Of a stretch of 64,000 bases of DNA, positions 1-17,198 are shown in pieces. The notes below the pieces were generated by a model. The model was not told the DNA's origin. It saw only the letters and a list, made by a program, of their open reading frames with translations, and did no database searches. The stretch spans positions 68,848 through 132,847 of IMG/VR virus record IMGVR_UViG_3300045451_000008; one strand, given 5' to 3'. The stretch is from a virus. Both the position numbers and the translations under genes were made by a program. The stretch's first letter is position 1; every line of letters starts with the position of its first letter.

Positions 1-1098
1 TACCAGGGCTCCACCATCCAGAAGCTCACGGCTGAGGGCCAGCGCGACGTGGACGCCTACGGTGACACCTCGCGCCACTTCGTCTCCGGTCCCTTCGCCA
101 CGTGGGAGGTCAACCCCCTCCGCAAGAAGGAGGACTTCGACACCGAGTTCCGTGAGGACCCGGTCATGTCCAAGGCCATGTACATGTGCCAGCCCTCCCG
201 GGCCACGGACGCCTACTTCCGCAACATGCCCGCCATCCGTTCGTGCGTCATCGAGGGGGAGCAGCCCATCACGGTGGAGTACAAGCTCCGCACCCTGCGC
301 AGCGACCTGACCGGGAATCTTGTTCAGACCTGGCAGGCCGAGTTCACCATCGCTCCGTGGTTCAAGCCCATCGCAGGGGCTCAGTACGCCATGCACGGTG
401 ACCTCGCGCTTCGCGGTGACCGTGCAGGCATCTCCATGTCTCACATCAAGCGCTGGGAGGATCGTCCGGAGACAGTCACTCTCGATGACGGCTCGGAGAT
501 CCAGGAGTACAACTCGGTCCCCATCGTGGAGAACGACTTCGTTCTCGCGCTGGAGTCCAAGCTCAACGAGACCCCTTCTCGCGAGATTCAGATTCGATGG
601 GCGCGAGAGCTGGCTTACGAGCTGTACAAGCTCGGATTCCACATCGCCATGTTCTCCTTCGACGGCTTCCAGTCCGCTGACTCGATGCAGATTCTGAATC
701 AGCGTGGCATCGAGACCAAGAAGATTTCCGCCGACGTCAACGACGACGTCTGGAAGGCACTGCGGGATGTCGGCTACGACGACCGCCTCGTGCTCAAGTT
801 CAATCAGCTCCTCTTCGATGAGCTGGAAGCCCTCTCCAAGATTCCCGGTGGCAAGGTTGACCACCCGCCTTCGGGATCCAAGGACCTGGCGGATGCACTC
901 GCGTGCTCTATCCTGGGGGCTATCGAGGTTGGTGGACAGGAAGACCCGACAGGGGAAGCCTTCTCCAGCGGCGAGAAGATCTTTGAAGTCGGAGACGCGC
1001 TCTCCATGCCTGATGGCTTCGATGATTGGTCCATGGCTTCGAGTGACCATCTCGGACTTCCAGTAGGCATGAAGGGATCTGGTTTCGGTGGCTACTGA
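1..1098 (+). CDS. Terminase large subunit (5'-truncated, C-terminal nuclease region)
   Basis: Frame is open from base 1. RNaseH-like motifs HGDLA...D and FDGFQS, and the C-terminal VDHPPSGSKDLADALA typical of terminases; lies directly upstream of the portal. Confidence 0.9.
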   Translation, partial: YQGSTIQKLTAEGQRDVDAYGDTSRHFVSGPFATWEVNPLRKKEDFDTEFREDPVMSKAMYMCQPSRATDAYFRNMPAIRSCVIEGEQPITVEYKLRTLRSDLTGNLVQTWQAEFTIAPWFKPIAGAQYAMHGDLALRGDRAGISMSHIKRWEDRPETVTLDDGSEIQEYNSVPIVENDFVLALESKLNETPSREIQIRWARELAYELYKLGFHIAMFSFDGFQSADSMQILNQRGIETKKISADVNDDVWKALRDVGYDDRLVLKFNQLLFDELEALSKIPGGKVDHPPSGSKDLADALACSILGAIEVGGQEDPTGEAFSSGEKIFEVGDALSMPDGFDDWSMASSDHLGLPVGMKGSGFGGY

Positions 1099-2947
1099 CG
1101 ACGTCAAGAAGAAGAATGAGCTGGCAGTCGTAGACCAGGAGGAAGCGACTGAGTCTCCCGAGGTGGCCGAGCGTCCCCTGCCCGTAGAGCTGGGTATCGA
1201 GATCGGTGTCGAGAGCAATCTCCCCTTCTCGACCCACTACACCCCTCCGATGGGCTCGCGCCGCAACATCCGGGACGACCTCTACGAGACCATCCGGGAG
1301 ACCTACGGCCAGGACTTCGGCCCGACTCCTCGTGACCTCGTCTCCATGCGGCGCCAGGACGGCCAGGCACGTGCCCTGTACCGCCTCCTGACGCTGCCTG
1401 TGAAGGCCGCGCTGGCGTCCTCGACCTTCCTCCCCGCCGAGGGTGGAGAGGCCGAGCAGGAGTACATCGAGCAGGTCTTCAACCTCCCGCCCGAGCACGG
1501 CGGCATGAGTGTCACCTTCTCGCACTTCATGAGCCAGCTCCTCATGGGTCTCTTCGACGGCTTTGCAGCCTTCGAGCAGGTCTACTGGATGCCGACCTTC
1601 GGCCCGCTGTCCGGCAAGTACACCCTCAAGAAGCTCGCGTACCGGCCCTCCGAGACCATCACCTTCGTTACGGACCAGGGCGGCTCCTTCGCAGGCTTCC
1701 GCCAGCGTGCTTTCCAGCACGGCAAGCAGATCGACGCGTTCATCCCGGTCGAGAACTGCTTCTACTACGCGGCGCAGGAGGAGGAGCGCAAGTTCTATGG
1801 TGTGAGCTTCTTCCAGTCGGCGTACTACCACTACGACAAGAAGATGAAGATCTACTTCACCGCGCACCTCGCAGCCCAGCGCGCCGCGGTCGGTACTCGC
1901 ATCGGCACCTATCCGGCTGCCGCAGGACCCACGTCCAAGGCCGTCTTCAAGCAGGCCCTCTCCGAGGTCGCCTTCGCGCAGTTCATGATGATGCCCGAGG
2001 GCTACAAGGTCGAGTCGCTCAAGGAGAGCGGGTCTTTCGACTTCCTGAACTACATCAACCACCACAACTCGCAGATGTCCAAGTCGGTGCTCGCGAACTT
2101 CTTCGACTCGGACACGGGTGGTGGCTCTGCCGACGCTTCTCTCGTCAACTTCGGTCAGCCCGGTGACGAGATGTTCACCCTGATGCTTCGTGGCGTCATG
2201 GACGACATCGCGAACTCCATCAACCACTACATCATCCCGCGGCTCATCGACTGGAACTTCGAGGGCGGCAAGTACCCGACCTTCACGTGGGCCAGCTTCA
2301 CCGACGAGCAGCGCTCGATCATCGCGGATACCTTCAAGACGCTCTCCACGGCAGGCCAGTCCATGACGGTCACGCCGGAGTTCATGCGTGCTCTGGAGAT
2401 CCACATGGCCGACGAGATGGGCCTGGAGGTGGACTACGAGGCCGTCGAGGAGCGCGAGGCCGAGGAGAAGGCTCAGCAGGAAGAGATGATGGCGCAGCAG
2501 CAGGCTGCCATGGACGCGCAGAACCAGCCCGTGGACGAGGAAGAGCCGGTGGACCCCGCCGACCAGTTCGAGACCTCCGCAGGCTTCTCGAACACCGAGT
2601 CCTCCGACGAGATGGTCAAGCTCGCTCGCGGCATGCTGGACGAGGCCGAGCTGGAGCTGTCGCGCCGGGTGGCCACCAAGGAGGGCTCCGATAAGTTCGG
2701 TGCTCCCATCGGCACGCTCATCACCGAGGACAACATCGCGAAGGCGGAGAAGAACACCAAGCGCAAGGTCACCCTCGTGCGCCTCATCTCCCTCCAGGCT
2801 CAGATCGACGCGGCCAACGAACTCGGCAACGAGCTTGCGGCCAAGGCGGCGCAGGACTCCTTCAACGAGGCCATGACGGAGTACACGGGTGGTCGCAACG
2901 TCGAGTACGTCAAGGAGCAGCTTCGCGCTCTGACCGGCAAGAAGTAG
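1088..2947 (+). CDS. Portal protein (Mu gp29/DUF935-like) with C-terminal extension
   Basis: 619 aa after terminase; FDGFAAFEQVYW, FYGVSFFQSAY and LIDWNF motifs; acidic C-terminal extension. Confidence 0.85.
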   Translation: MATDDVKKKNELAVVDQEEATESPEVAERPLPVELGIEIGVESNLPFSTHYTPPMGSRRNIRDDLYETIRETYGQDFGPTPRDLVSMRRQDGQARALYRLLTLPVKAALASSTFLPAEGGEAEQEYIEQVFNLPPEHGGMSVTFSHFMSQLLMGLFDGFAAFEQVYWMPTFGPLSGKYTLKKLAYRPSETITFVTDQGGSFAGFRQRAFQHGKQIDAFIPVENCFYYAAQEEERKFYGVSFFQSAYYHYDKKMKIYFTAHLAAQRAAVGTRIGTYPAAAGPTSKAVFKQALSEVAFAQFMMMPEGYKVESLKESGSFDFLNYINHHNSQMSKSVLANFFDSDTGGGSADASLVNFGQPGDEMFTLMLRGVMDDIANSINHYIIPRLIDWNFEGGKYPTFTWASFTDEQRSIIADTFKTLSTAGQSMTVTPEFMRALEIHMADEMGLEVDYEAVEEREAEEKAQQEEMMAQQQAAMDAQNQPVDEEEPVDPADQFETSAGFSNTESSDEMVKLARGMLDEAELELSRRVATKEGSDKFGAPIGTLITEDNIAKAEKNTKRKVTLVRLISLQAQIDAANELGNELAAKAAQDSFNEAMTEYTGGRNVEYVKEQLRALTGKK

Positions 2948-2950
2948 ATC

Positions 2951-3751
2951 GTGGTGTCCTTCAGTCAGCAGATGGAGGACTCCAGGACGGCACACCTCGC
3001 GGTGACCGCTCTGGACGAGGCCGCGCGCCTTCAGATTGCCGCCGCCTACCTGGCGTGGGATGCCGGGGAGCTGAACGCTCAGACGGTCCGTCACCGGCTT
3101 GAGGCCATCGTCCGCATGTCGTACCGCGCAGCCTCTCAAGTGGGCGCAGAGGCGGCACAGAGGGCCGCAGGAGACATCCCAGGCTGGAAGCCCAAGGCCG
3201 TCTTCAACAACGACTACCTCCAGGACCTCCTCAAGGACGTCCGGCGCAACCTCCGGGAGTACAAGGCCTCCAAGCGCACGGACGCGGACCGGCGCCGAGC
3301 AGTGCTCTACACGCAGCACAGCGCCGGGGTGGCGGCACAGCGAGCGTTCACGGACTCCACCATCGAGAGCTACGCCAACGTCGAGGCCCTGGGCTACGAG
3401 GTCATCAAGATCTGGCTGGCCAACTTCGTGGACAACACTCCCTGCCAGCACTGCCGTGACCTGCATGGCACTCGTGTGGGTCTCCGTGAGCCCTTCAAGG
3501 TGCCGACCAAGACCCTCAAGATCTACCGGGACCTCCAGGGTCCGCCCCGTCACCCTCGCTGCCACTGCTATCTCTGCGTCCTCGTGGTCAACCTGGAGAA
3601 CGCGTTCGAGGAGATCGAGCCGCTCAAGCCGCCGACTACAGCTCCCGTGACGATGACTACTCAAGAGGTCAAGAAGATTCCTGCCAAGGTCTTCTCGTCC
3701 ATCGTCGGAGTGCTCAAGAAGATTCAGAAGACTCTCAAGGGAGCACCGTGA
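2951..3751 (+). CDS. MuF-like (SPP1 gp7) minor head protein
   Basis: PCQHCRDLHG...GPPRHPRCHC motif typical of MuF; follows the portal. Confidence 0.8.
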   Translation: MVSFSQQMEDSRTAHLAVTALDEAARLQIAAAYLAWDAGELNAQTVRHRLEAIVRMSYRAASQVGAEAAQRAAGDIPGWKPKAVFNNDYLQDLLKDVRRNLREYKASKRTDADRRRAVLYTQHSAGVAAQRAFTDSTIESYANVEALGYEVIKIWLANFVDNTPCQHCRDLHGTRVGLREPFKVPTKTLKIYRDLQGPPRHPRCHCYLCVLVVNLENAFEEIEPLKPPTTAPVTMTTQEVKKIPAKVFSSIVGVLKKIQKTLKGAP

Positions 3752-3972
3752 TCCAGACGTACTCGCTTCGATTCTTCTTCGACAGTGTTCAGTCAGCAGC
3801 TCAGGCCTTGGAGATAGTTCTTCTTGATGCCCGCTCCACGCCTAGGAACTACCGGATCACAGGCCTGTCCGCACAGCAGATTCTTCAGTCAGGAATTCTT
3901 CTTGCTGGGGAACTGGATGAGGTAGCCGCTAAGCTGAAGACCGTGCCAGGAGCCGTCTGGTACAACGAGTAG
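3748..3972 (+). CDS. Hypothetical protein (74 aa)
   Basis: GTGA overlap with the upstream gene and fills the gap, but codon usage is atypical. Confidence 0.5.
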   Translation: MIQTYSLRFFFDSVQSAAQALEIVLLDARSTPRNYRITGLSAQQILQSGILLAGELDEVAAKLKTVPGAVWYNE

Positions 3973-3980
3973 GGACCATC

Positions 3981-6900
3981 GTGAATCTTTCTCCGGTTGA
4001 GCTGGCTCAGCTCCAGGACCTGGACATCATCGAGCTGGCGAACAAGATTCGCAAGGTTCGTACTCCGGAGGGCGCCAAGAAGTACGGCGTCCCCATCGGC
4101 ACCGTCATCACCAAGGACATGGAGGACAAGCTCCAGGGCAAGTCCGGGTCGGGCGCCCCGGCTTCCACCATCCAGTCTGGCGCCAACAACTTCGGCTCCA
4201 ACTCGGGCTCGTCGGCCACCCCCAAGGGTGCTGCCCCTGCTCCGGCCAACTCCCTCAACGCGCAGGGCCAGACCAAGAACAGCCGACCCAAGGTCGAGAA
4301 GGAGCAGCAGCAGCTCAAGGGCCAGGGCGGACAGCCCGCAGGCTCCAGCGCTGCCCAGCAGACCGCCGTGGCTGACGCCGTGCAGGCCAACCTGACGGTG
4401 ACCGACTCCACCATCTCCGGCCCGCTCAAGTTCTCGGTCGGTTCGGCCCAGTACTCCGCGCCCTCGGGCTCTGTGCTCATCAAGTCGAAGAAGGGCACGG
4501 GCGGTGGCGCCTACGTCCGCACTCCGGACGGCACCATCCACGCCTTCAACCAGGAGGGTGAGATCACTCTCCCCGACAACCTGGGCGACATCCTCTCGCT
4601 GAAGTTCACCAAGAACTTCAAGAGCGACGCCAAGTACGCCAAGGCGGAGTTCGACAACGACGACACCGAGACCTTCCCGGAGCTGGCCGCAGGCGCGGTG
4701 CTCCAGTCGGACGGCCAGGACATGTTCACCAAGGGTGAGGATGGCTTCTGGACCCACAAGGACATCGACATCAGCCTCACTGACGAGGACCTGGCGCCGA
4801 TGTTCGAGAGCGGTGAGCTGACGCTCAAGGAGACGCCGGTCGGCTTCAACGAGGCAGGCAAGGCCGACTTCAAGAACATGTCCAAGGACGAGTTCAAGGA
4901 CTACCTCTACTCGAAGAAGGAGGGCGACAAGCTCTACCTCAACGGGACCGAGGTCGTCTTCAACGGAGAGAGCTGGCTGAGCGAGAACGGTGCGGACTTC
5001 TCCGAGGATGAGATGGTCGTCTTCCGCAGCAAGGTCACTGAGGAGCCCAACACCGAGGAAGCTGGTGCTCCGAGTGCCACTCCTGAGGCCAACAAGAACA
5101 CGCTCAAGGTGGGCGACCTCGTCAGCACGCCCGAGGAAGAGAAGAATCTTCCGGTCGGCGCTGTCATGGACGTCCGCCTCGGTGGCGGGAAGAAGAAGAC
5201 TCCGCACACCAAGACCTCCGAGGGAAAGTGGACGGAGCCTGGAGGCAGTGCTGTAGAGACCCTGGGGTACAACCTCTCCATGGGGCACGTCACGGTCAAG
5301 AGCCTTCCGGAGGACTCGAACAGCTCTGCTCCCGACCCCACTACTGCCGTGGACCTTCCGGCGCCGGGCTCTCCTCTGGCTGAGGAGACGAAGGTCAAGT
5401 CGCTGGACAACATCGCTGGCTACCCCGTGGGCACCAAGCTCCAGTTCACGCTGCCTTCGGTCGGTGGTTCGGAAGGCTTCTCCGACACTTACACCAAGAT
5501 CGGGGACAACCAGTGGGCCAGTGCTGACCCCACGTTCAAGGACACTCCGGTCTCCGATTCTTCTTTCAAGAGCGCGATTGACCAGGGTCTCCTGACTGAG
5601 GTCTCTGTCCCAGAAGCCCCTGACCCGGACTACACCCTCACTCCTCAGGACCTGATGGAGATGAAGGACGGCGACGGCATCGACGTCGGCGGAGAGTTCT
5701 ACGTCAAGAGCAACGGTGTGTGGCTCGACTCGTCTGGCTCGGACAACGACGACGAGGCGTTCGCTGAAGACCTCGAAGAGGGCAACGTCGAGAAGATCAA
5801 CGACGTGCTCGCGGCGGAGGCGCTGGAGATCGCTCTGGAGGCCAAGGCTCAGTTCGAGGAGAACGAGCGTCAGATCAAGAAGCAGCAGCAGGCCGAGAAG
5901 AAGGCCGCTGAGGAGGAGTACCAGACCCAGGCACAGCTCCAGGCGAACATCGAGAAGCAGCAGGCTGAGGCCGCCGCCAAGAAGAAGGCTGACCAGGAGA
6001 AGGCTGCCGCCGACGCCGCCAAGGCCGCAGCAGAAGCCGAGGTCGCGGCTCAGGCTGCCAAGACGGCCAAGTACCAGCAGGACCTCGCCAAGGCCAATGC
6101 CGAGCAGCCCAAGGTGGGCAAGATTCTCGTCACCGTGGAGGAGATGGACTCGCTCTCCACGGGCACCAAGGTCAAGTACACCTCTATCGCAGGCGCTTCC
6201 ACGGAGTACGTGCACCAGTCGGATGGTTCCTGGCTCTCTGACTCCGGCACCGTCGCCTACACCAATTCCTTCTACGCCGCGGTCAACACCGATCTGGTCT
6301 CCATCTCGGCACTGCCGGACACGAGCCCGGCGCCGGAGCCGCAGAAGAGCGGCGACGACGGAACCTTCCTGATTGGTGGCAAGCCGTACTCCGCCAAGGA
6401 GGTCAAGCGGCTTCACGCAGTGCTGTCGATGCACCACGGTCCCGTTTCGCTCGGAATGAAGATCCTTCCGGACAGTCCGTTCGCTGACAAGAACGCGATG
6501 GACGAGCTGAAGGCACTGGCTCTCGCGGACTTCCCCAAGCTGGGGATCAAGCCCGGTATCGTCGCGTACCTCAAGAACATCATGGACAACCAGAAGTCCG
6601 AGAAGTCGGTGCCGACTCCCTCTTCGGATGGCGACTTCCAGGTCAACGGGAAGGTTTTCAGCTCGGACGACTTCCAGGAGGCTCTGACCTCTCTGGAAGA
6701 CCACCCCGGCTTCCAGATCTCCTACGGTCTCAAGGCCGTGCCCAACAACCCTTTCGTGGACAAGGACAACCAGGGTGCGCTGAAGCAGCTCGCTCAGGAT
6801 GCGTTCCCCAACCTCAAGCCCAAGCCCGCGGTCGTGGCCTACCTCAAGAAGCAGCTCGGCTACCAGGACGAGGAGGAGAGCGCCCAGGAGAGCGAGGGTG

Positions 6901-9900
6901 CCTCGACGGGTACTTCCATCTACTTCGGCTCCCGCACGCCCAAGAGCGGCGTCCAGGGAGTGGACGGTGGAGAGTTCGACCAGGCCGACGTGGAGTCCGC
7001 CATCGCCATCCTCCAGAACTACCCGGGCAAGCTCTACAAGAACGAGCTGAACAAGCAGGGCAACCCGCTGGGTGCTCTCGACCCCAACGCCATCGTCGGC
7101 TTCCACAAGGACAAGCTGGAGGGCAAGGCCGCGTACATCAAGCTCCTCCAGACCAAGCTCGACAAGTCCAAGACCAAGACGCCGATGGTCGCGCCCGAGG
7201 TCCCGGACGTCAACGCTGACTGGGTGGACCCGAACGCACCGGAGGAGAACAAGAATCTTGTTCCTCCGGGAGGCTTCAAGGACCTCGCCGTGGGATCCGA
7301 GGTCTCGCTCAACTTCCCGGCCAGTCCCGAGATGGATCCGCAGCCCTACCTCAAGGTCTCGGACAACGAGTGGAAGAACACTCTCTACAACACCGTCCAC
7401 TCTGAGGACGACCTCGTGGTCGCTCAGGAGTACGCCAACGGCTCTGAGTTCTCCATCACCAAGGTCGGTGCGCCCGCGGCGCCCGAGAAGATCGGTACCG
7501 TGGACGACCCGATGTCGGTCGAGGACGTCAAGAACCAGGGCATCGGTGCTCAGGTCCAGACCGTGAGCAAGAGCGGAAAGACCATCACCTTCACCAAGGT
7601 CAGTGAAGTTTCCTGGGACGGTGACAACCCCGATTACCTGGACATGGATTCGGCGGCTATCGAGATTCTCGCCAAGAAGAATCAGGTCCAGCTCATCAAG
7701 CCCGCGGAAGAGTCTTCGGGTGAGAAGTCCGACGAGGAGAAGGCCACTGACCTCAAGGCTGAGCTTTTCGCCTACCCCGCGGGCACCAAGGCCAAGCTCA
7801 ATCTCCTCAGCGAGACGGTCACCAAGCAGGAGGACGGCTCCTGGAAGTCCGACAAGGGCACCACGTACCCCGAGGGTGCCCTTGAGAACGGCTGGGATGG
7901 TCTGGGCGGGGAGTTCATCAGCTCGCCCACTCCCGAGCCTTCTCAGGCTTCCAAGGACACCGGCAAGGCTCTGGAGCTGGATGGCTACCCGGTCGGGCAC
8001 AAGGTCTTTTCTCAATTCGGAGATATCACCCTCACCAAGGAGTCGGATGATTCCTGGAAGCACAGCGATGGCACGATGCTTACCTCGTTCCAGCTCGCTG
8101 GTCTCTGGGATGCTTACCAGTTCGAGCACATCGGTTCCGACACGGCTTCCCCGAACGAGAAGCCTCTCGCGGAGGACATCAACTTCTGGACCTCCAGCAT
8201 CGACTACTCCAGTGACTGGATGGAGCTTGAGGGGACCATTGACGAGCTGCCGGTGGGCACCATTCTCAAGAACGAACTGGGGTCTTCGATGCAGAAGAAG
8301 TCTGAGTTCGAGTGGGTGTTCGAGGGAGGCACTCCGACCAACATCGCGCACAACTCGACCACCATCGCGCAGGACTGGGAAGTGGACCCCTGGACTGTCG
8401 AGAAGGTCGGAGACGGTCTCTACGTCGAGCCGCTGCCGAAGAACAACGTCACGGACTTCTTCGCGAGCCTTCAGGGCCTCAACACCCCTAACGCGGCTAC
8501 GGCTACTCCCGAGACTCCTGCCGCCAAGAAGCCGACCGAGTTCGGTGAGCCCATGACGGCGGACGACTTCCTCACGCAGCCGGTGGGCTCGGTCATGCAG
8601 CTCGCTGACGACAGTGGCTTCTACACCAAGGCGATCAACGGCACGTGGGAGGACCTGGACGACGGACACGTCCTCACGACGGCCAACGTCGCCACGCTCG
8701 TCTCCAACGAGGGTGCTCTCCTCTTCGAGGTGGGCAAGCCGGACGTGCCGGACTACGCCGCAGCTCCCGGTGCTGTCCAGAGCAAGCAGACCGGTGACCC
8801 TGACACCAGCCCCAACATCAACGAGTCCGGTCTCACGCCGGGCAAGTACTCGACGGAGAACGGCAAGGCCTACATGGTCGTCTCCGCCAACGGCTCCGGT
8901 GTCTACGTGACCTCCAAGGGTGAAGTCACTGCCATCAACGCGGCCAAGGTCAAGGCGAACCACAAGGCGGGAATGACCACCTACGGTGGCGTCGTGGAGA
9001 ACCCCCCGGTGCCTTCTTCGGAGAGCACTGTCGAGGCGACCAAGAAGAAGGTCGTCAACGACGTCATCCCGAGCGGTACCTACTACAACGGTCCGTCGAA
9101 CGACCCCAAGTCCACGGTCTACATCGTGGATGGGGACGCGGTGAAGATCTACAAGAACGGCGCCGAGCCCAAGGTCGGCAAGCAGTCTTCGATCCAGTCG
9201 GTCTTCAAGAAGGGCCAGCTCCTCGACCAGCAGGGCAACTCCATCTTCCCGAAGGATTACACCGGCTCTGTCTCGCTCCTGGGACAGGAGACCACGATTC
9301 CGGCCCTCATCCTCGCGCAGAAGGCCATCGACAACCACACGGGCTCCGCATTCGATTCCAAGCTCCAGTACAGCATCAAGCAAGCCGGTGTCTTCTACGA
9401 GGGCCAGGTCGATCTGGAGACCTTCAAGGCCAACATCGACTCCATGCTCAAGGACGTGGACAAGAGCGACCCGGACACGGGCGCTGCCAACCTCTTCGAG
9501 TGGGATGGTCTCGGCAACGCGACCTTCCCTGAGTCCATGGTCGGAGTCAACAAGGGCTACAAGATCTCTGAGTACAACGCCTTCATCAAGCAGGCGTCGC
9601 TCTCCATCGGCGGTGGCAACATCATCGGTCAGCACACGAACGCGATGTCCAAGACCCAGAAGGGTCAGTGGATCAACGCGTTCAACAACGGTGATTTCAA
9701 GGCCATGTATCAGATCGAGGTCGCCGCGGCTGCCTCGAAGAATCTTCCTCACGCTGCCGGTTACCTTCACCCGGGCTATGAGGGAAGTCCCTCGACCAAC
9801 AAGGTGCAGTGGGGCGCCGCTGTTCCCGGTGAGATTCCTGCCGGTGTCAAGGTGGACAAGTTCAAGCTGCCGGAGACCCTGAGCTGGTCGAACCCCAATG

Positions 9901-12900
9901 AAATTCCCAAGGAGGTAGTCGATAACTACCTCGTCGCGGCTCAGATGCAGAACCCCGAGTACCTGACTCTCGCTGAGCGTCGTCAGTGGGCAACTAGCCA
10001 CTACAACGCCTCGATTGCCTACAACCCGGCTTCTCCCACGAACACCGTGAACAAGCTCTCGCTCCAGGCTCAGTCGCTGAAGGCATCCGGCGCCGCTCCT
10101 CTCACCGACTCTCCCAAGTGGACTGAGATCGAGACGATGGAGAAGCCCAAGCTCTACGTGAACCTCTTCGAGCAGAGCAAGTTCCCCACCGAAGGCTGGA
10201 CGGCTACTGCCGCGGAGCAGTGGTACGAGGACAACAAGGCGGAGCTGGACGACTACGTCACGAACAACTCGACGGCCAAGGAACAGGGCATCACCACCAA
10301 GTCGCTCAGCCTCAACAAGTACGTGACGCAGCAGTACGTCAAGATGTACTTCGAGGACAAGGAGAGCGCTGCCGCCGCTGAGGCGCTCATCCCCGTCTAC
10401 ACCAAGGACCCCACCCAGACGGTCAAGGGTTCGACCAACCCGGTGCACCAGTACACCGACCAGTTCGGTAACAAGTACTTCTTCAAGCCGCGCGCCGACA
10501 CCAAGCTGGACAAGTACCGCTCCGAGGTCGAGCACATGGGCAACGAGATGTCCCGTGCTCTGGGCTTCAACGCATCCAAGTCCAGCCTCCAGACCCTCAA
10601 CGGTCAGTACGGCCAGCTCCAGTCCGACGCTGGTGGCGTCGGTGACCTTATGAACGCCGACTACTCCAAGCAGTCGCTGACGACCCTGAAGGACGTCGCC
10701 GCGGAGCACATCCTGGACTGGTTCCTGGACAACGACGACACCAAGGGCGACAACGTCCGGGTCATGGCCAACGGTCATGTCGTCGGTATCGACAAGGGTC
10801 GCGCCTTCAAGAGCTACGGCGCATGGAAGGGTCTCTCCGGAGACGCTGCCATGAACTCGAACGCCAACACCGTCTACAGCCAGATGTACGCAGCGATCAA
10901 GTCCGGGAAGATTTCCAAGGCGGACGCCGACGAGATCTACAAGGCGACGCACGCTCGCGCCCTGAAGATGCAGAAGTTCAGCGACGCCCGCCTCGATGCA
11001 CTTCTCGACCAGGGCATGGCCAACCGCACGAGCTACGACGTGCCCTACAAGCTCTCGGACGGCACCTACGCTTCGGACTCGCTGGATGGCCTGAAGATGG
11101 CTGTCAAGGACCGCAGGGACCGTCTGGCGGAGGACTTCGACTCCATGTGGTCGAAGATCTACCAGCAGGCCGGGTACGGAGATCTTCCGGAGCCCGAGGT
11201 GTCCCCGCTGGGAGACGTCATCTCCGGACTCGGTCACGAGAAGCTCCACACGGAGGTCTTCGAGGCGAACACCCACGGCAAGTCCACGCTCATCAACAGC
11301 TCCAGCGTCGTCGGCGGCACCGTGCACCTCTGGGTGGAGAAGAACAAGAAGGCCGACAAGCTCCAGGTCAAGGGAGAGATGTACGTCGGTGACCTGAAGC
11401 AGCAGGAGCTTCTGGGATTCTTCTCCAAGCACACCGAAGGTCTTTCCGACGAGAAGATGCAGAGCGGATTCAACTCCGACGAGTTCGGTGAAGGAATCGT
11501 CAACGCGGCCAAGACGATCAATCACCACGCGCTCGATCAGAAGTACAACATGTCCACGGTCAACAACTTCTTCGGCATCGAGAAGAACATCGACAAGGAC
11601 CTGGATGCCTGGACTCCGAACCTGGAGGCCAACTCCACGTTCATGAACGAGCCCGCCTACAAGTTCCCCTCGGGCACCCTTGTGCCCATGGTTCACGTGG
11701 ACCAGTACAAGCTCATGCTGGACTACTACAAGCCGAAGGCTGCCTCTGTCTCGGCTGCCTACGACAGCCAGGGCAAGGTTGCGATCATCGAGCCTTACTC
11801 TCCGCTGAGCCTTCCCGTGAAGGACATGGAGGAGCAGTACGGCAAGACCGATGGTTCTTCTCTCGTCAAGCTCTCGAACAACTCGTTCCTCTACAAGGAC
11901 TCCGCCAACAGCTCCGTCTCCACGGTCTCGGAGAAGGAAGCCATGGCCCTCATGGACAACGGGGCCGACCCGGGATGGTCTTCCGTCTCGGCTCCCAAGG
12001 TGGTCACTCCCAACCTGCCGTACACCGTCAAGCTCAACGAGAAGACTCACGAGAAGGTTGCTGCCTACGACAGCCGACTCAACCTGAAGGTCGAGATGGA
12101 AGCGAGCGTCGGACAGAACGGCGCCCGTGGCAAGGAGTTCGAGATCACTCTCGACACGGGTGAGAAGATCTACTGGCGCAACGCGGGCCAGACCGGTACG
12201 GCGATGGGCCAGCACGGCAAGCTCACGTTCGTCATGCCGGATGCCGGGGACTCCCAGTCGTCGCAGGCCTCGATGGCGCGTATCCAGAACGTGCTCAGCG
12301 ACCTGGGCATCGACAACGAGCCCGCCGACGACACCACCGCTCGCAACATCTACTGGCGCGAGATGTACGGCGTCATGATGAACCGCAAGCACAAGCCGAA
12401 CTCCCCCAACGAGCGGGCTCAGAAGGCCATCCAGGCGAAGATCGCTGAGATCAAGAGCACCGAGAGGAAGTTCATCGAGGAGTTCGGTCGTCTCGTCTCT
12501 CCTGAGGAGGAGAACGAGTTCTGGACCAAGGTCTACTCGGATGAGTGGCCTAAGGAGGTTGCCAACCTCTTGCAGACCGAGGGCTACCTTCCCAAGTACG
12601 ACCACCTCAACATTCAGAACTCTGAGCTGGAGTCGGGTAAGCCGTACTGGGATCGCTTCGACGTCTCGGATGACGAGTACGAGGACGCGGTGCTCTACCA
12701 CGAGAGTTCCAGCACCACTGAGACCATCATCGAAAGCGGTGGGCTCTTCTCGGGTGAGGAGCGCGTGCGTCAGCTCGGCTTCATCGCGACGCCTAGTGGG
12801 CTGTACGGTTCGACTTCCCCTCTCCAGGACCAGAGCAACGGTTCGTCTCATGTCATCTACACCCGGGTCCGCAAGGTGGGCACCGCTGTTCCGTCCAACG

Positions 12901-13253
12901 TGCCCTACGTCGTGGACCCCAAGCTCATGAAGCGCACGCGCATGTATGCGCTTCCCACTGACCTGTACGGCATCCTCTCGGCTCGAAAGGGCAAGTCGCT
13001 CTCCGGCGTCAAGGATGTGGTGGAGGAGTTCAATGGCAACTCCAAGAACGAGGTCATGCCTCCCAACGCTGTGTCGGTCCTCGACGGGATGATGGTGATT
13101 CTCTTCGACAACGCCGCGGAACGGAACGCCATGATTCAGCGCCTGAAGGAGCTGAGCATCGAGCAGATTCGCGGAGTGCCTGTCGAAGATAGACTCGTCA
13201 TGCGGGTGGATGCCCAGAAGGCAATCAAGAAGATCAAGGAGTCGGGCAACTGA
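3981..13253 (+). CDS. Giant (3090 aa) polyvalent putative virion protein: repeats, HipA/PI3K-like kinase domain and ART-like C-terminus
   Basis: Strong phage codon bias; sits in the head module; kinase motifs KYFFKP, E, DDTKGDN, IDKG; C-terminal LYH...SGGLFS...YT...NEV. Confidence 0.75.
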   Translation: MNLSPVELAQLQDLDIIELANKIRKVRTPEGAKKYGVPIGTVITKDMEDKLQGKSGSGAPASTIQSGANNFGSNSGSSATPKGAAPAPANSLNAQGQTKNSRPKVEKEQQQLKGQGGQPAGSSAAQQTAVADAVQANLTVTDSTISGPLKFSVGSAQYSAPSGSVLIKSKKGTGGGAYVRTPDGTIHAFNQEGEITLPDNLGDILSLKFTKNFKSDAKYAKAEFDNDDTETFPELAAGAVLQSDGQDMFTKGEDGFWTHKDIDISLTDEDLAPMFESGELTLKETPVGFNEAGKADFKNMSKDEFKDYLYSKKEGDKLYLNGTEVVFNGESWLSENGADFSEDEMVVFRSKVTEEPNTEEAGAPSATPEANKNTLKVGDLVSTPEEEKNLPVGAVMDVRLGGGKKKTPHTKTSEGKWTEPGGSAVETLGYNLSMGHVTVKSLPEDSNSSAPDPTTAVDLPAPGSPLAEETKVKSLDNIAGYPVGTKLQFTLPSVGGSEGFSDTYTKIGDNQWASADPTFKDTPVSDSSFKSAIDQGLLTEVSVPEAPDPDYTLTPQDLMEMKDGDGIDVGGEFYVKSNGVWLDSSGSDNDDEAFAEDLEEGNVEKINDVLAAEALEIALEAKAQFEENERQIKKQQQAEKKAAEEEYQTQAQLQANIEKQQAEAAAKKKADQEKAAADAAKAAAEAEVAAQAAKTAKYQQDLAKANAEQPKVGKILVTVEEMDSLSTGTKVKYTSIAGASTEYVHQSDGSWLSDSGTVAYTNSFYAAVNTDLVSISALPDTSPAPEPQKSGDDGTFLIGGKPYSAKEVKRLHAVLSMHHGPVSLGMKILPDSPFADKNAMDELKALALADFPKLGIKPGIVAYLKNIMDNQKSEKSVPTPSSDGDFQVNGKVFSSDDFQEALTSLEDHPGFQISYGLKAVPNNPFVDKDNQGALKQLAQDAFPNLKPKPAVVAYLKKQLGYQDEEESAQESEGASTGTSIYFGSRTPKSGVQGVDGGEFDQADVESAIAILQNYPGKLYKNELNKQGNPLGALDPNAIVGFHKDKLEGKAAYIKLLQTKLDKSKTKTPMVAPEVPDVNADWVDPNAPEENKNLVPPGGFKDLAVGSEVSLNFPASPEMDPQPYLKVSDNEWKNTLYNTVHSEDDLVVAQEYANGSEFSITKVGAPAAPEKIGTVDDPMSVEDVKNQGIGAQVQTVSKSGKTITFTKVSEVSWDGDNPDYLDMDSAAIEILAKKNQVQLIKPAEESSGEKSDEEKATDLKAELFAYPAGTKAKLNLLSETVTKQEDGSWKSDKGTTYPEGALENGWDGLGGEFISSPTPEPSQASKDTGKALELDGYPVGHKVFSQFGDITLTKESDDSWKHSDGTMLTSFQLAGLWDAYQFEHIGSDTASPNEKPLAEDINFWTSSIDYSSDWMELEGTIDELPVGTILKNELGSSMQKKSEFEWVFEGGTPTNIAHNSTTIAQDWEVDPWTVEKVGDGLYVEPLPKNNVTDFFASLQGLNTPNAATATPETPAAKKPTEFGEPMTADDFLTQPVGSVMQLADDSGFYTKAINGTWEDLDDGHVLTTANVATLVSNEGALLFEVGKPDVPDYAAAPGAVQSKQTGDPDTSPNINESGLTPGKYSTENGKAYMVVSANGSGVYVTSKGEVTAINAAKVKANHKAGMTTYGGVVENPPVPSSESTVEATKKKVVNDVIPSGTYYNGPSNDPKSTVYIVDGDAVKIYKNGAEPKVGKQSSIQSVFKKGQLLDQQGNSIFPKDYTGSVSLLGQETTIPALILAQKAIDNHTGSAFDSKLQYSIKQAGVFYEGQVDLETFKANIDSMLKDVDKSDPDTGAANLFEWDGLGNATFPESMVGVNKGYKISEYNAFIKQASLSIGGGNIIGQHTNAMSKTQKGQWINAFNNGDFKAMYQIEVAAAASKNLPHAAGYLHPGYEGSPSTNKVQWGAAVPGEIPAGVKVDKFKLPETLSWSNPNEIPKEVVDNYLVAAQMQNPEYLTLAERRQWATSHYNASIAYNPASPTNTVNKLSLQAQSLKASGAAPLTDSPKWTEIETMEKPKLYVNLFEQSKFPTEGWTATAAEQWYEDNKAELDDYVTNNSTAKEQGITTKSLSLNKYVTQQYVKMYFEDKESAAAAEALIPVYTKDPTQTVKGSTNPVHQYTDQFGNKYFFKPRADTKLDKYRSEVEHMGNEMSRALGFNASKSSLQTLNGQYGQLQSDAGGVGDLMNADYSKQSLTTLKDVAAEHILDWFLDNDDTKGDNVRVMANGHVVGIDKGRAFKSYGAWKGLSGDAAMNSNANTVYSQMYAAIKSGKISKADADEIYKATHARALKMQKFSDARLDALLDQGMANRTSYDVPYKLSDGTYASDSLDGLKMAVKDRRDRLAEDFDSMWSKIYQQAGYGDLPEPEVSPLGDVISGLGHEKLHTEVFEANTHGKSTLINSSSVVGGTVHLWVEKNKKADKLQVKGEMYVGDLKQQELLGFFSKHTEGLSDEKMQSGFNSDEFGEGIVNAAKTINHHALDQKYNMSTVNNFFGIEKNIDKDLDAWTPNLEANSTFMNEPAYKFPSGTLVPMVHVDQYKLMLDYYKPKAASVSAAYDSQGKVAIIEPYSPLSLPVKDMEEQYGKTDGSSLVKLSNNSFLYKDSANSSVSTVSEKEAMALMDNGADPGWSSVSAPKVVTPNLPYTVKLNEKTHEKVAAYDSRLNLKVEMEASVGQNGARGKEFEITLDTGEKIYWRNAGQTGTAMGQHGKLTFVMPDAGDSQSSQASMARIQNVLSDLGIDNEPADDTTARNIYWREMYGVMMNRKHKPNSPNERAQKAIQAKIAEIKSTERKFIEEFGRLVSPEEENEFWTKVYSDEWPKEVANLLQTEGYLPKYDHLNIQNSELESGKPYWDRFDVSDDEYEDAVLYHESSSTTETIIESGGLFSGEERVRQLGFIATPSGLYGSTSPLQDQSNGSSHVIYTRVRKVGTAVPSNVPYVVDPKLMKRTRMYALPTDLYGILSARKGKSLSGVKDVVEEFNGNSKNEVMPPNAVSVLDGMMVILFDNAAERNAMIQRLKELSIEQIRGVPVEDRLVMRVDAQKAIKKIKESGN

Positions 13254-13552
13254 TGAACGTCACTGAAAAGAAGATTTCAGACTTCTTCGGACCGGCTCTT
13301 CGAGTCCTCTCCGACCGGAGCAACCTGGACGCCATCGTCGTCTGGAAGCTCCGTGAGGATGAGGGGGAGGTCTTCCTGGACCTCTGGCCTCACCCCTCTC
13401 AGGTCATCTCGCTGGTCCTTCCCGACGACATCGAGGAGACCGAGGGTCGCTGGACCTTCTCGGCTGAGGGCACTCGCTGGCAGTTCCGGGCCTTCCCTGG
13501 CGCCAAGGAGTTCGCGCACGCGTTCAAGAAGGCGCAGCGCAACCGTGGCTAA
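13253..13552 (+). CDS. Hypothetical protein (99 aa)
   Basis: TGATG coupling to the giant gene. Confidence 0.7.
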   Translation: MNVTEKKISDFFGPALRVLSDRSNLDAIVVWKLREDEGEVFLDLWPHPSQVISLVLPDDIEETEGRWTFSAEGTRWQFRAFPGAKEFAHAFKKAQRNRG

Positions 13553-13844
13553 GTACCTTCTGCACCAGGCCCGCAGTGGCGAAGTCCTCGGTGTGTGGTT
13601 CGAGAACGATTCGGCCTACGTGCCCACCCTCCAGGGAGACCGTGCTCAGACCTACGGTCAGGCAGTCATGGACTCGCGGGGTCCGGCCACGGAGTGGGAC
13701 GACTACGCCGAGCAGCTCGCCAACAAGTCCCCGGCGCCGAACTACATGTGGGACCAGTTCAGCCACTACTCCACAGTCCTCTCAGAAGTTCTCGCTGGCG
13801 CACGACAGGCCACCGAGAAGCCTGAAACGGGAGAAGACGAATAG
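13545..13844 (+). CDS. Hypothetical protein (99 aa)
   Basis: GTG start overlapping the upstream gene; good codon bias; followed by a hairpin. Confidence 0.7.
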   Translation: MAKYLLHQARSGEVLGVWFENDSAYVPTLQGDRAQTYGQAVMDSRGPATEWDDYAEQLANKSPAPNYMWDQFSHYSTVLSEVLAGARQATEKPETGEDE

Positions 13845-13915: not shown

Positions 13916-13925
13916 TTGCTAGTAG
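13916..13925 (+). promoter_or_regulatory. Putative late promoter element TTGCTAGTA (copy 1)
   Basis: Same 9-mer at 21193 and 34679, each upstream of a structural or lysis gene. Confidence 0.5.
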
Positions 13926-13930
13926 TGAGT

Positions 13931-15001
13931 ATGAACGGCCTTGCGATTCTCCCGACTTCAGGGGAGAGCTTTGTGAAGCTGTCGCGCTCCAAGTCGGGCA
14001 CGACCTTCAAGAAGCACATCCTGACGAAGGGCGACCTCCTCTACCCCGACGTGGTCGGTGGCAAGGTCGTGATTGACGACGCGTTCTTCGCGCAGCTCAC
14101 GGCGAACTTCAACTCCAAGGTCTGCTCTCACGTGCAGATCCCGGTGGCTGGCGCGAACAATGAGCACACGGAAGACCCTGACCGGAATGTCGGTGAGGTC
14201 ATCGGGCTCTCTGTCGATGGCGACAAGATGTACGCCATTCTCGACGTCCGCGACGAGAAGGCTGCACCCAAGTTCGGCAAGACGTACCTCGGTGCTTCGG
14301 CCATGCTGCACCTCAACTACACCGATACTCGCGACGGGAAGAAGAAGGGTCCGACCCTCCTCCACGTCGCCGTAACCAACCGGCCCCACATCGTGGACCT
14401 GGAGGATTACGAACTGCTCGCGGCATCCGCTGGGGGCAAGGAACAGGCCGTTTTTCTGACTGCCGCTCGAAAGGAAACTTCCATGGACCTGGATGCCCTC
14501 ATCGCCGCCCTCAAGGACGAGCACGGGATCGACGTTCCCGCCCTCCAGCTCTCCGCCGCTGAGGCCGAGGGTGCCGTGAAGCTCTCCAACGGCCTCCGCG
14601 ACGCGCTGGTCAACAACGGCTTCGTCAAGCTCTCCGCCGACCAGGAGGTGGGCGCCGACGAGATCCTCGGTGCCGTCGCGGACCTCGCCACCAGCAAGGT
14701 CGAGCTGTCCAACCGTCTCGACGTGCTGGAGCGCACCTCGAAGGAGGACGCCGCCAAGGCGCACGTCGAGGACCTCGTCTCCAAGGGCTTCATCGCCCCG
14801 GTCCAGCGGGACGCCATGGTCGAGCTTCGCCTCTCCAACACGGACCTCTTCGACAAGCTCATCCCGGAGAAGCCCCTCGTCAAGCTCTCGGGCGGGGAGT
14901 CGGGCTTCAACTTCCCGGGTGAGACCCGCGACGAGGCGAACGACGCGGAGATCGCGCGGCTCTCGAACATGGCCAAGGACCTCGGCATCGTCATCGCCTG
15001 A
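13931..15001 (+). CDS. Capsid maturation protease / scaffolding protein (Mu gpI-like)
   Basis: Upstream of decoration and capsid genes; N-terminal H...YLGAS...LLHVAVTNRPHI motif; helical C-terminal half. Confidence 0.8.
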   Translation: MNGLAILPTSGESFVKLSRSKSGTTFKKHILTKGDLLYPDVVGGKVVIDDAFFAQLTANFNSKVCSHVQIPVAGANNEHTEDPDRNVGEVIGLSVDGDKMYAILDVRDEKAAPKFGKTYLGASAMLHLNYTDTRDGKKKGPTLLHVAVTNRPHIVDLEDYELLAASAGGKEQAVFLTAARKETSMDLDALIAALKDEHGIDVPALQLSAAEAEGAVKLSNGLRDALVNNGFVKLSADQEVGADEILGAVADLATSKVELSNRLDVLERTSKEDAAKAHVEDLVSKGFIAPVQRDAMVELRLSNTDLFDKLIPEKPLVKLSGGESGFNFPGETRDEANDAEIARLSNMAKDLGIVIA

Positions 15002-15049: not shown

Positions 15050-15466
15050 ATGGCCATCGAGTACCCCGGGAACGCGATTCCCAACGCAGGCTTCCGCACC
15101 GGCAACCGGGTGGTGGACGACGAGCTTCTCGTCTCGACCAACGGCGGCTTCACCCAGAAGGGTGTGACGCTCAAGGCCGGTCAGGGCATCCTGCCGCTGG
15201 GCACGATCCTGGCGCGCGAGACCGCCTCGAAGAAGTACGTCAAGTACGCCGCGACCGGTGGCGCCGCGGGTGCCAACGTCGCTCGTGGCATCCTCCGCTC
15301 CACGGTGGACACCGGCTCCGACGCCGCTGGCCAGGAGTACCTCAACAACATCGTCATCCGCGGCATCCTGAACCTCACCAAGGTCAAGACCGCGAACTCG
15401 GGCGTGGACCTCGCGACCATCCTCGGTGCTCGCACCGACGACGTGTGGAACACCTTCACGTTCTAG
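15050..15466 (+). CDS. Head decoration protein (lambda gpD-like)
   Basis: GVTLKAGQGILPLGTILA...ARGIL motif; just before the capsid gene; strong RBS. Confidence 0.8.
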   Translation: MAIEYPGNAIPNAGFRTGNRVVDDELLVSTNGGFTQKGVTLKAGQGILPLGTILARETASKKYVKYAATGGAAGANVARGILRSTVDTGSDAAGQEYLNNIVIRGILNLTKVKTANSGVDLATILGARTDDVWNTFTF

Positions 15467-15645: not shown

Positions 15646-16701
15646 GTGCCTGACATTCCCCTCCTCCAGCCCCTGGCATTCCGCTCGGTGGTCGAGAAGT
15701 TCACCGCCCCGGAGAGCCTGGAGATGCTGTCCCGCATCCCCAAGACTCCGTGGCCCTTCCCCACCATCCAGTGGGAGATCATCCGCGGTTCGCGTGCCAT
15801 CGCGCGCCCGAACGTGCCCAACAGCGAGGCGCACATCGTCCCGCGCCTCGGTCGCGAGACCGTGTCGGGTAGCTTCCTCTACCTGCGCGAGAAGAAGGTC
15901 TTCCAGCCGACGACCCTCTACTGGATCCGCCAGGCTGCCAGCAACGTGGGCGACCTGACCATCCAGAACCGCGCCGAGCAGATGATCCTGCGCGAGGTCA
16001 ACGACCTCAACGTCCGGTTCGACAACTTCGCGGAGTACTCCATCTGGCAGGCCCTCCAGGGGCGCCTCGTCGTGGACTCCGCGGACGTGCAGGTCGATGT
16101 GGACTACAAGTTCCTCAACTCGCACAAGCCGGTCACGGGTACCCCGTGGGCTCAGGCCACGCCGGAGCAGATCATCGGTGACGTGATCTCCTTCAAGCGC
16201 CTCATCCAGAAGGATGGCCGCGTCGCCGCGGTGGATGCCTACACCTCGGAGAAGGCCATCCAGGACATCTTCAACTCGTTCGCGTTCCGCTCGTCGGGCA
16301 CCGCGGGCTCCCTCCCCGCCGCGGGTCTCCTGTCGGACCGTGCCAAGGACGAGTACTACCGCTCCGGTACGCTCCCCGGCTTCATGGGCCTCAACTGGAA
16401 GCCGCAGGAGGCCGTCTACGACGCCACCGGCGCGGCCTACACGGCGAACCCGACCGACCCCAACCAGGAGGCCAAGTTCCTCCCGGAGAACAAGCTCATC
16501 CTCGCGAACCTGACGGACAACCGTCCGTTCGAGATGTTCGTCGGCCCGACCGCCGACACCGAGAACACCCAGGGCTCGACGGGCAAGTTCGCCAAGAACT
16601 GGGAGGAGAAGGACCCGTCCGGCCGGGTTTATCTCCTTGAGTGGAACTTCATCCCTGCCATCACGGCACCCGAGCAGATCGTCTCCGCGACCATCGGCTA
16701 G
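15646..16701 (+). CDS. Major capsid protein (lambda gpE-like)
   Basis: 351 aa; EYSIWQALQG, VDY, FLPENKLIL and KDPSGR motifs; RBS AAGGAG. Confidence 0.85.
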   Translation: MPDIPLLQPLAFRSVVEKFTAPESLEMLSRIPKTPWPFPTIQWEIIRGSRAIARPNVPNSEAHIVPRLGRETVSGSFLYLREKKVFQPTTLYWIRQAASNVGDLTIQNRAEQMILREVNDLNVRFDNFAEYSIWQALQGRLVVDSADVQVDVDYKFLNSHKPVTGTPWAQATPEQIIGDVISFKRLIQKDGRVAAVDAYTSEKAIQDIFNSFAFRSSGTAGSLPAAGLLSDRAKDEYYRSGTLPGFMGLNWKPQEAVYDATGAAYTANPTDPNQEAKFLPENKLILANLTDNRPFEMFVGPTADTENTQGSTGKFAKNWEEKDPSGRVYLLEWNFIPAITAPEQIVSATIG

Positions 16702-16717
16702 GTTCCACACCTCCACT

Positions 16718-16755
16718 GAAGAGGCCACGATTCGCAGTTGGATCGTGGCCTCTTC
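16718..16755 (+). terminator. Stem-loop after capsid gene, overlapping a downstream promoter
   Basis: GAAGAGGCCACGAT / ATCGTGGCCTCTTC 14-bp inverted repeat. Confidence 0.65.
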
Positions 16756-16767
16756 GGCGTAGTACAG
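16737..16767 (+). promoter_or_regulatory. Putative phage-sigma promoter GTTGG-N16-CGTAGTACAG
   Basis: Matches a motif repeated at 38773, 51335, 55164 and 60569; ATG lies 2 nt downstream. Confidence 0.6.
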
Positions 16768-16769
16768 GT

Positions 16770-17198
16770 ATGAAAACCTGCACCAAGTGTTTGATTCCCA
16801 AGGAACCCACCGAGTTCTACCCCACTACTGGCGGGCGCAGCAGAACGCTAAGGCTGATGGCCCAGTGCAAGGAATGCACCAAGGCTCTGACGTCAGCTAG
16901 GCAGAAGACCGAGCAAGGCAAGGTCAACGCTCGCCGCGCCAAGCTCCGCCACCTCTACAACATCTCTTTGGAGCAGTACGACGAGATGTTGGAAGCGCAG
17001 GGAGGGTGCTGCAAGCTCTGTGGAATCGACACTCCTGCCCCTCGACAGAACTTCTCGGTGGACCATGACCACACGTGCTGCCCGGGTGGAACTAGGAGCT
17101 GTGGCAAGTGCGTGCGAGGACTTCTCTGCCTTCGGTGCAACAACGCCCTGGGTTGGTTCGAGACGCACAAGAAGGCGGTCACGGAGTACACGCTGTAA
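16770..17198 (+). CDS. Endonuclease VII-type HNH endonuclease
   Basis: KTCTKC...CKEC N-terminus; VDHDH..C..G..CVRGLLC..CN..LG. Confidence 0.9.
   Translation: MKTCTKCLIPKEPTEFYPTTGGRSRTLRLMAQCKECTKALTSARQKTEQGKVNARRAKLRHLYNISLEQYDEMLEAQGGCCKLCGIDTPAPRQNFSVDHDHTCCPGGTRSCGKCVRGLLCLRCNNALGWFETHKKAVTEYTL

Follow-up and report, generated by a model that had tools for sequence, protein, structure and literature searches.

The virion RNA polymerase of phage N4 is a giant protein that is carried in the capsid and injected into the host. T4 Alt, a packaged and injected ADP-ribosyltransferase (ART), offers another precedent (PMC5512222), and the main text of the same paper predicts packaging and injection for the polyvalent proteins that phages and conjugative elements encode (Iyer, Burroughs, Anand, de Souza and Aravind, 2017). 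Here, we analyse a stretch of 64,000 nucleotides (nt), hereafter the window, which covers positions 68,848 to 132,847 of the IMG/VR virus record IMGVR_UViG_3300045451_000008; this record of 132,847 bp, rated complete, stems from an uncultured phage, and the window is its right half. Within the head module, the window carries a giant open reading frame (ORF), P0001, whose product of 3090 amino acids (aa) combines a kinase-like domain with a C-terminal ART-like domain. With a probability of roughly 0.6, we read this product as a MuF-associated, multi-domain head protein of the polyvalent-effector kind, that is, as an enzyme cargo carried by the capsid. The features on which this reading turns are the following:

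3981..13253, + strand: giant ORF P0001, 3090 aa, GTG start, TGA stop, open throughout
10344..11183, + strand: atypical protein-kinase-like domain, aa ~2122-2401, with the catalytic set K2169, E2184, D2253, N2258 and D2271
12633..13250, + strand: C-terminal ART-fold-like domain, aa 2885-3090, with conserved R2928, R2930, F/Y2960, R2962, D2994, G2997 and E3024

The giant ORF is genuine, and an AGGGA sequence precedes its GTG by about 5 nt. A first-pass annotation, made from the letters of the window, had described a head-module protein of this size with kinase-like and ART-like effector domains. The ORF is present on the + strand as described, and its neighbours (portal, MuF-like, protease/scaffold, decoration and capsid genes) bear out the location; as a whole, the observation was confirmed in part and its interpretation received partial support.

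Comparison with known packaged effectors

Both ARTs that are packaged and effectors fused to MuF are known from PMC5512222, PMC9503650 and PMC5576092. Like the polyvalent proteins of PMC5512222, in whose main text ART and kinase domains recur, P0001 is one large polypeptide with several host-directed enzyme domains, encoded among virion genes and linked to MuF; it joins at least two effector-type domains, kinase and ART-like, in a virion-gene context. It differs in the nature of both. The kinases treated in that main text belong to a truncated Ser/Thr/Tyr-kinase clade or are zeta-toxin-like, whereas the domain found here resembles PI3/4K, CtkA and HipA; likewise, the ARTs there are of the Tox-ART-HYD2 type with no mention of DarT, while the fold found here is DarT-like. 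The terms HipA, PI3 and phosphatidylinositol are absent from the main text of PMC5512222, whose supplement might list the giant-protein family.

The MuF polymorphic toxins (Jamet et al. 2017, PMC5576092) share with P0001 a gene in the head module, a C-terminal toxin-like enzyme (frequently an ART in the toxins), a small ORF immediately downstream, and a hypothesised delivery together with the DNA. In our phage, MuF is instead a separate upstream gene, being fused only in relatives, and the giant protein is about ten times longer than the toxins of PMC5576092. Moreover, the word 'kinase' does not occur in PMC5576092, which reports these toxins only from temperate phages. The giant family, in contrast, sits on contigs of ~125-133 kb and was matched among 185,579 species genomes by only two metagenome-assembled genome (MAG) contigs.

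The closest described proteins come from prophages. In the phage collection, only three Mycobacterium abscessus prophage proteins, annotated as 'minor capsid and ADP-ribosyltransferase fusion' (BK061311 gp53 and two others), matched P0001. These fusions consist of a VG15/MuF-type head domain, followed by a kinase-like domain and a C-terminal ART. In BK061311 gp53 (L001:2537-6079), the middle part (aa ~489-729) is homologous to the kinase domain of P0001, with 24% identity over 250 aa and a pairwise E of 2e-11, and the IDKG and D..N motifs of the two align, although gp53 carries a Gln at the position of the catalytic-loop Asn. The fusions are shorter (1180 aa) and end in an ART of the canonical ADPrib_exo_Tox family (Pfam E 6.8e-16) rather than in a DarT-like fold. 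The kinase-like middle domain is unannotated in the M. abscessus prophage records.

No homology to T4 Alt or to the N4 virion RNA polymerase was detected, and for the giant protein packaging is a proposal. Searching 50,697 phage records with megablast returned no near-identical DNA for the giant gene. At E<=1, Pfam gave just a chance-level FtsH_ext match to P0001, and no PHROG family was matched; searches of the PDB sequences, with P0001 alone and with the 25-sequence family profile, yielded low-complexity chance matches only.

The kinase-like domain

The HipA/PI3-4-kinase pattern that had been noticed near 10430-10810 is there, at aa 2150-2277, and its key residues are invariant in 25/25 sequences of the family alignment, from which all invariance counts for kinase and N-terminal residues are taken. 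The invariant positions are K2169 (in KYFFKP), R2180, E2184 (in EVE), D2246, N2251-D2252-D2253, N2258 (of DxxxxN), I2270-D2271-K2272 and R2274. When aa 2100-2420 were modelled by AlphaFold2 on the family alignment, the result was a bilobal kinase fold at a predicted local distance difference test (pLDDT) of 89.6 and a predicted template-modelling score (pTM) of 0.82. From the secondary structure of this model, K2169 lies on strand 3, as the ATP-binding Lys, and E2184 on helix C; D2253...N2258 form the catalytic loop, and D2271, within I2270-D2271-K2272, is the metal-binding Asp equivalent to that of DFG.

The best structure match of the domain was PI4KIIalpha (4pla; score 15.3, root-mean-square deviation 3.6, 221 residues aligned), followed by CtkA (14.4), MavQ (12.8), Vps34 (12.5), ATM (12.4), actin-fragmin kinase (12.1), CotH (11.8), Fam20 (11.4) and HipA (11.2). 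Sequence identity to PI4KIIalpha, CtkA, MavQ, Vps34, actin-fragmin kinase and HipA is 9-15%, and neither the PI3_PI4_kinase nor the HipA_C model of Pfam matched P0001 at E<=1. Relatives reach both models below their cut-offs: PI3_PI4_kinase with E 1.3e-4 and 3.6e-4 (22.4 and 21.0 bits; cut-off 27.1) and HipA_C with E 3.1e-6 (27.4 bits; cut-off 30.5); the Fam20C model is likewise reached by distant relatives, below cut-off. Because of these structure matches, the invariant residues and the sub-cut-off Pfam matches in relatives, we regard the modelled kinase fold, of the PI3/PI4-kinase, CtkA and HipA group, as settled, and consider it likely that the domain is catalytically competent. The first-pass assignment to the HipA/PI3-4-kinase type is thus backed by the fold and by the invariant catalytic residues. 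A word-based search for longer proteins with this kinase domain returned four matches only.

The C-terminal ART-like domain

The letters VLYH, IIESGGLFS, VIYT and NEV, previously read as an ART of the H-Y-E type, are present at aa 2904-3026, but they are only partly conserved. Conservation in this domain was counted over 172 family proteins, some columns having 164 or 173 rows:

F/Y2960: 172/172
D2994: 172/172
G2997: 172/172
E3024: 170/172 (Gln in 2)
R2962: 167/172
R2930: 165/173
R2928: 158/173 (Lys in 14)
H2907: 25/164 rows (Ser commonest, 50/164)

Five of the conserved residues, R2928, R2930, R2962, D2994 and G2997, lay outside the pattern that had been noticed earlier. The H-Y-E label fails on its His, since H2907 occurs in just 25/164 rows, and the H-Y-E (PARP/diphtheria-type) class was dropped. 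Motif 1 was recognised neither by this His nor by the strand-1 Arg of the R-S-E class; conserved arginines (R2892, R2928 and R2930) lie nearby. F/Y2960 and E3024 both fall on predicted strands, E3024 at a strand start, and from sequence and model they would represent the aromatic residue of ART motif 2 and the Glu of motif 3.

AlphaFold2 modelled aa 2700-3090 with a pLDDT of 83.1. Among the Foldseek matches of this model with E above 1e-3, Thermus DarT appeared at ranks 4, 6, 7 and 44 (E 0.14-1.1), while rank 38 was taken by SopF. Out of 48,161 chains, the five best were DarT or SopF, as were the first seven among Foldseek's 995; Tpt1 and CteC ranked lower. The DarT chain was aligned nearly whole, over residues 4-208 of 210. 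Weak BFVD matches of the model included baculovirus ORF32 and giant-virus proteins. DarT1 and DarT2 (PDB 8baq, 7omv, 7omu and 7yk3; PF14487) are thus the best structural matches, and they too have a conserved Glu, on what would be the equivalent late strand. Unlike them, the giant family shows no sequence or profile similarity to DarT and no conserved motif-1 His; furthermore, DarT is the stand-alone toxin of a toxin-antitoxin pair, whereas here the domain ends a giant phage protein, and the search for a partner (DarG, Macro or NADAR) had no match. Membership of the DarT family was dropped for want of a sequence-level link. It is nevertheless plausible, with the odds somewhat in favour, that the fold is ART-like and retains the aromatic residue and the Glu, and the domain may have ART activity.

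Several results count against our reading of the giant protein, most of them bearing on this domain. Apart from the variable motif-1 His, every ART structural match falls below the search tool's own chance mark, and against the PDB and BFVD, Foldseek gave no match to the C-terminal model at E<=1e-3. A six-frame search of the genome with the Pfam DarT model returned nothing even at E<=10, and 0/20 domain sequences matched an ART family of Pfam or PADLOC. Comparing these 20 sequences by hhalign with 19 DarT sequences, drawn from 24 positive genomes among 400 sampled, gave a probability of 0.24% and an E of 0.25; the sole aligned segment, which is not significant, pairs E3024 with the invariant Glu of DarT. 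The 132,847-bp phage genome yielded neither a Macro nor a NADAR gene at E<=0.1. With regard to the protein as a whole, this phage encodes MuF separately, the family members are all metagenome-derived, two thirds of the giant protein (aa 1-2100 and 2420-2700) carries no fold assignment, and the kinase fold does not distinguish a protein, lipid or small-molecule substrate. Modelling and Foldseek searches of domain slices, among the checks that the first-pass annotation had proposed, upheld the kinase fold and left the ART fold sub-threshold; for the latter, the structural matches are consistently ARTs, but they stay below the chance mark and lack support from sequence or profile.

These same points (sub-threshold matches, no sequence or profile link, the variable His and the missing ADP-ribose-processing gene) favour an explanation in which the kinase is the sole enzyme. 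The C-terminal domain would then just share the alpha/beta arrangement of ARTs and serve in docking to the portal or capsid, in nucleic-acid binding, or in some other catalysis by its Arg/Asp/Glu set. We consider this unlikely, though to be taken seriously, as the best matches in two differently built searches are solely ART-fold proteins, as the DarT chain is covered almost entirely, and as ART motif 3 is matched by the near-invariant Glu at a strand start and motif 2 by the invariant aromatic residue. A true ART also occupies the same C-terminal position in the M. abscessus analogue, and relatives show an NAD/ADP-ribose theme: in P0098, a NUDIX domain (E 1.1e-14) is inserted between kinase and ART-like domain, and in P0172 a canonical ADPrib_exo_Tox (E 2.5e-13) lies close to the N-terminus.

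Pairing of the two domains and the extent of the family

Counting was restricted to the columns of the kinase catalytic core, and 144/172 family proteins were found to have this core and the ART-like domain together. Among the other 28, 26 lack the kinase core because, at <=830 aa, they are too short upstream to reach it, and the two long ones (P0133 and P0119) failed the catalytic-core filter. The kinase and ART-like domains form one obligate unit. In 16/172 proteins, including L016, L018, L020, P0172, P0068 and P0118, 73-524 extra residues follow the ART-like domain; the tails of L018 and L020 matched no Pfam family.

A word-indexed search with aa 1750-3090 found 27 proteins at E<=0.001, of which 24 are full-length (2522-3476 aa, 28-65% identity) and cover 99-100% of the queried region; most full-length homologues come from contigs of ~110-133 kb. 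With a profile of the C-terminal domain, 1921 representatives of clusters at 50% identity were matched at E<=0.001 among 1.84 billion proteins, 1108 of them at <=1e-10, so that the family comprises at least 1921 clusters, a lower bound. One genome for each of the 185,579 species gave two family matches, both on MAG contigs, one of them of 126 kb. Given these few matches, the family seems to belong to phages that are free and probably lytic, and a prophage origin was dropped on the same ground.

Layout of the giant protein

Conservation along P0001 is uneven: it is concentrated in an N-terminal peptide, in aa 150-330 and in aa 900-1080, and becomes continuous from aa ~1620 to the end. Besides the two enzyme-like domains, the family alignment delimits these regions:

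4050..4118, + strand: conserved N-terminal peptide, aa 24-46, with R24, V26, G31, P38 and I43 invariant in 25/25
4668..8810, + strand: variable, repeat-rich middle, aa ~230-1610, of low conservation and occupancy with many indels
8838..10280, + strand: start of the conserved C-terminal core, aa 1620-2100
11184..12632, + strand: conserved linker between the enzyme-like domains, aa 2402-2884

The N-terminal peptide recurs in the C-terminal extension of the portal protein (portal aa 526-548, window 2663-2731), where BLASTP found 14/23 residues identical with a pairwise E of 1e-7; the shared peptide may be a common docking or packaging tag. This stretch of 23 residues ranks among the most conserved of the giant family. 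In the middle region, a motif scan detected ~10-11 small modules with a TK..DG.W-like motif at their ends, and a segment rich in Ala, Glu, Lys and Gln (aa ~624-757) is a probable coiled coil. Self-BLASTP of the giant protein revealed no internal repeat at E<=1e-3, and the repeats of the middle region are therefore degenerate.

Within the start of the C-terminal core, the block of aa ~1830-2100 (9468-10280) is strongly conserved, with invariant W1897, H1930-P1931-G1932, W1944, G1950-E1951, N1982-Y1983, R2001, W2003 and H2007. It had no Pfam, PHROG or PDB-sequence match within aa 1620-2100, and the best score in the ESM Atlas for aa 1825-2110, 0.80, is low and uninformative; the block could represent a third enzyme or else a domain for binding. 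The last part of the linker (aa 2700-2870) was modelled as a small beta domain and a helical bundle, with weak and unspecific fold matches.

The size of 3090 aa, the long variable region with its repeats and coiled coil, the position in the head module and the peptide shared with the portal would all suit a protein that is mainly structural. It could be an internal core or ejection protein, in the manner of the internal core proteins of T7 (or, with regard to cargo, of the N4 virion polymerase); its repeats would span the envelope or fill the capsid, and its enzyme-like domains would be secondary or directed at the envelope. We regard this as improbable, in view of a family in which the enzyme core rather than the repeats is most conserved, the catalytic residues are invariant, and members of 1050-1350 aa keep scarcely more than kinase, linker and ART-like domain. 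Neither Pfam nor PHROGs detected a transmembrane or lytic domain in the giant protein.

Gene order in the head module

The capsid-cargo reading draws further on the genes around P0001, which Pfam and PHROG scans assigned as follows:

1088..2947, + strand: Mu-type portal gene (Pfam Portal_Mu E 1e-34; PHROG 113)
2951..3751, + strand: minor head gene of the MuF-like kind, next to the giant ORF on its upstream side and separate from it (Pfam Phage_Mu_F and PHROG head-morphogenesis families)
13253..13552, + strand: small gene s1, 99 aa, its ATG sharing one base with the TGA of the giant gene (TGATG, 13251-13255), with AAGGAG 12 nt upstream
13545..13844, + strand: small gene s2, ~99 aa, GTG start, with an 8-base overlap with the stop of s1 (13545-13552)
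13916..15001, + strand: prohead protease/scaffold gene (Mu I-like)
15050-15466: decoration protein gene, lambda-D-like
15646-16701: major capsid gene, E-type

The match of the MuF-like gene to Phage_Mu_F (E 2.5e-6, 28.7 bits) lies slightly below the cut-off of 29.6. An interval of 229 bases (3752-3980), unusually long for a tightly packed operon, separates this gene from the giant gene. Directly after the major capsid gene, inside the structural module, lies an endonuclease VII gene (16641-17198; Pfam E 6.8e-18), and the mechanical ORF call makes the two overlap.

Among the related loci, 11/23 have a MuF-like match, many of the loci ending short upstream, and this match lies upstream of the giant ORF in all but L015, where it is in frame within the giant ORF; the translation of the latter gives a weak Pfam Phage_Mu_F match (E 0.0027). 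The fusion is clearer in P0027, a protein of 1701 aa with a Pfam MuF domain at 164-276 (49.1 bits, above cut-off), a kinase core at 852-1044 and an ART-like domain at 1499-1678, while P0001 has no MuF match in its own polypeptide. Downstream gene order was counted in 19 related loci, after L014 (identical to L017) and L022, L024 and L025 (partial) had been dropped: the giant gene is followed by a protease/scaffold homologue in 18/19 loci, by s2 in 13/19 and by s1 in 4/19. Packaging of the giant protein in the virion, and its injection, may be proposed from this gene content, and the proposal gains strength from a gene order that is conserved and from relatives in which MuF is fused.

Gene order also suggests co-transcription with the assembly genes, which would suit a protein that is not injected and acts late, in the producing cell, on the phage particles themselves, for example as a CotH/Fam20-like kinase phosphorylating head or scaffold proteins. 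This seems to us very improbable: PI4KII, CtkA and MavQ are closer structural neighbours, relatives with fused MuF speak for a cargo of the capsid, and the gain of NUDIX and ART domains is, in the main text of PMC5512222, typical of host-directed effectors.

The giant gene, s1 and s2 are, judging by the sequence at their junctions, translationally coupled. With its start in the stop codon of the giant gene, s1 sits where the candidate immunity gene of MuF toxins would be. Neither s1 nor s2 belongs to a Pfam or PHROG family, and a complex prediction of s1 with the C-terminal domain scored 0.00 against a mark of 0.32, which speaks neither for nor against binding. A bolder proposal, to which we give little credence, is that the kinase and the DarT-like domain make up a virion-delivered two-enzyme unit, in which the terminal domain would ADP-ribosylate host nucleic acid rather than protein, the kinase would act on the same target or pathway, and s1 and s2 would keep the producing cell unharmed. 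If this were true, an anti-phage toxin chemistry, that of DarT on DNA, would have been turned into an injected phage weapon.

Proposed role and significance

Under the capsid-cargo reading, the conserved N-terminal peptide and the N-terminal domain would tie the giant protein to the portal/MuF vertex during prohead assembly, with the long variable, repeat-rich stretch as a spacer. The payload would be the constant C-terminal ~1000 residues, made up of the atypical kinase, the linker of ~480 residues and the ART-like terminal domain, closest to DarT. Most likely, the protein would be packed in the capsid and released into the host together with the DNA. There, early in infection, host targets would be modified by the kinase and probably also by an NAD-dependent transferase.

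The idea of packaged polyvalent effectors is known; in the literature searched, a large family joining a kinase to a DarT-like domain is undescribed, though the supplements of PMC5512222, PMC9503650 and PMC5576092 may list it. The analysis has also shown the unannotated middle domain of the MuF-ART proteins from M. abscessus prophages to be kinase-like. The first minutes of an infection are decided by host-modifying enzymes that arrive packaged, and few of them have been studied, T4 Alt being the classic. If the domains are active, the giant proteins would represent a widespread mode of host takeover or counter-defence, and two new enzyme families, one of kinases and one of ARTs, would become available for characterisation.

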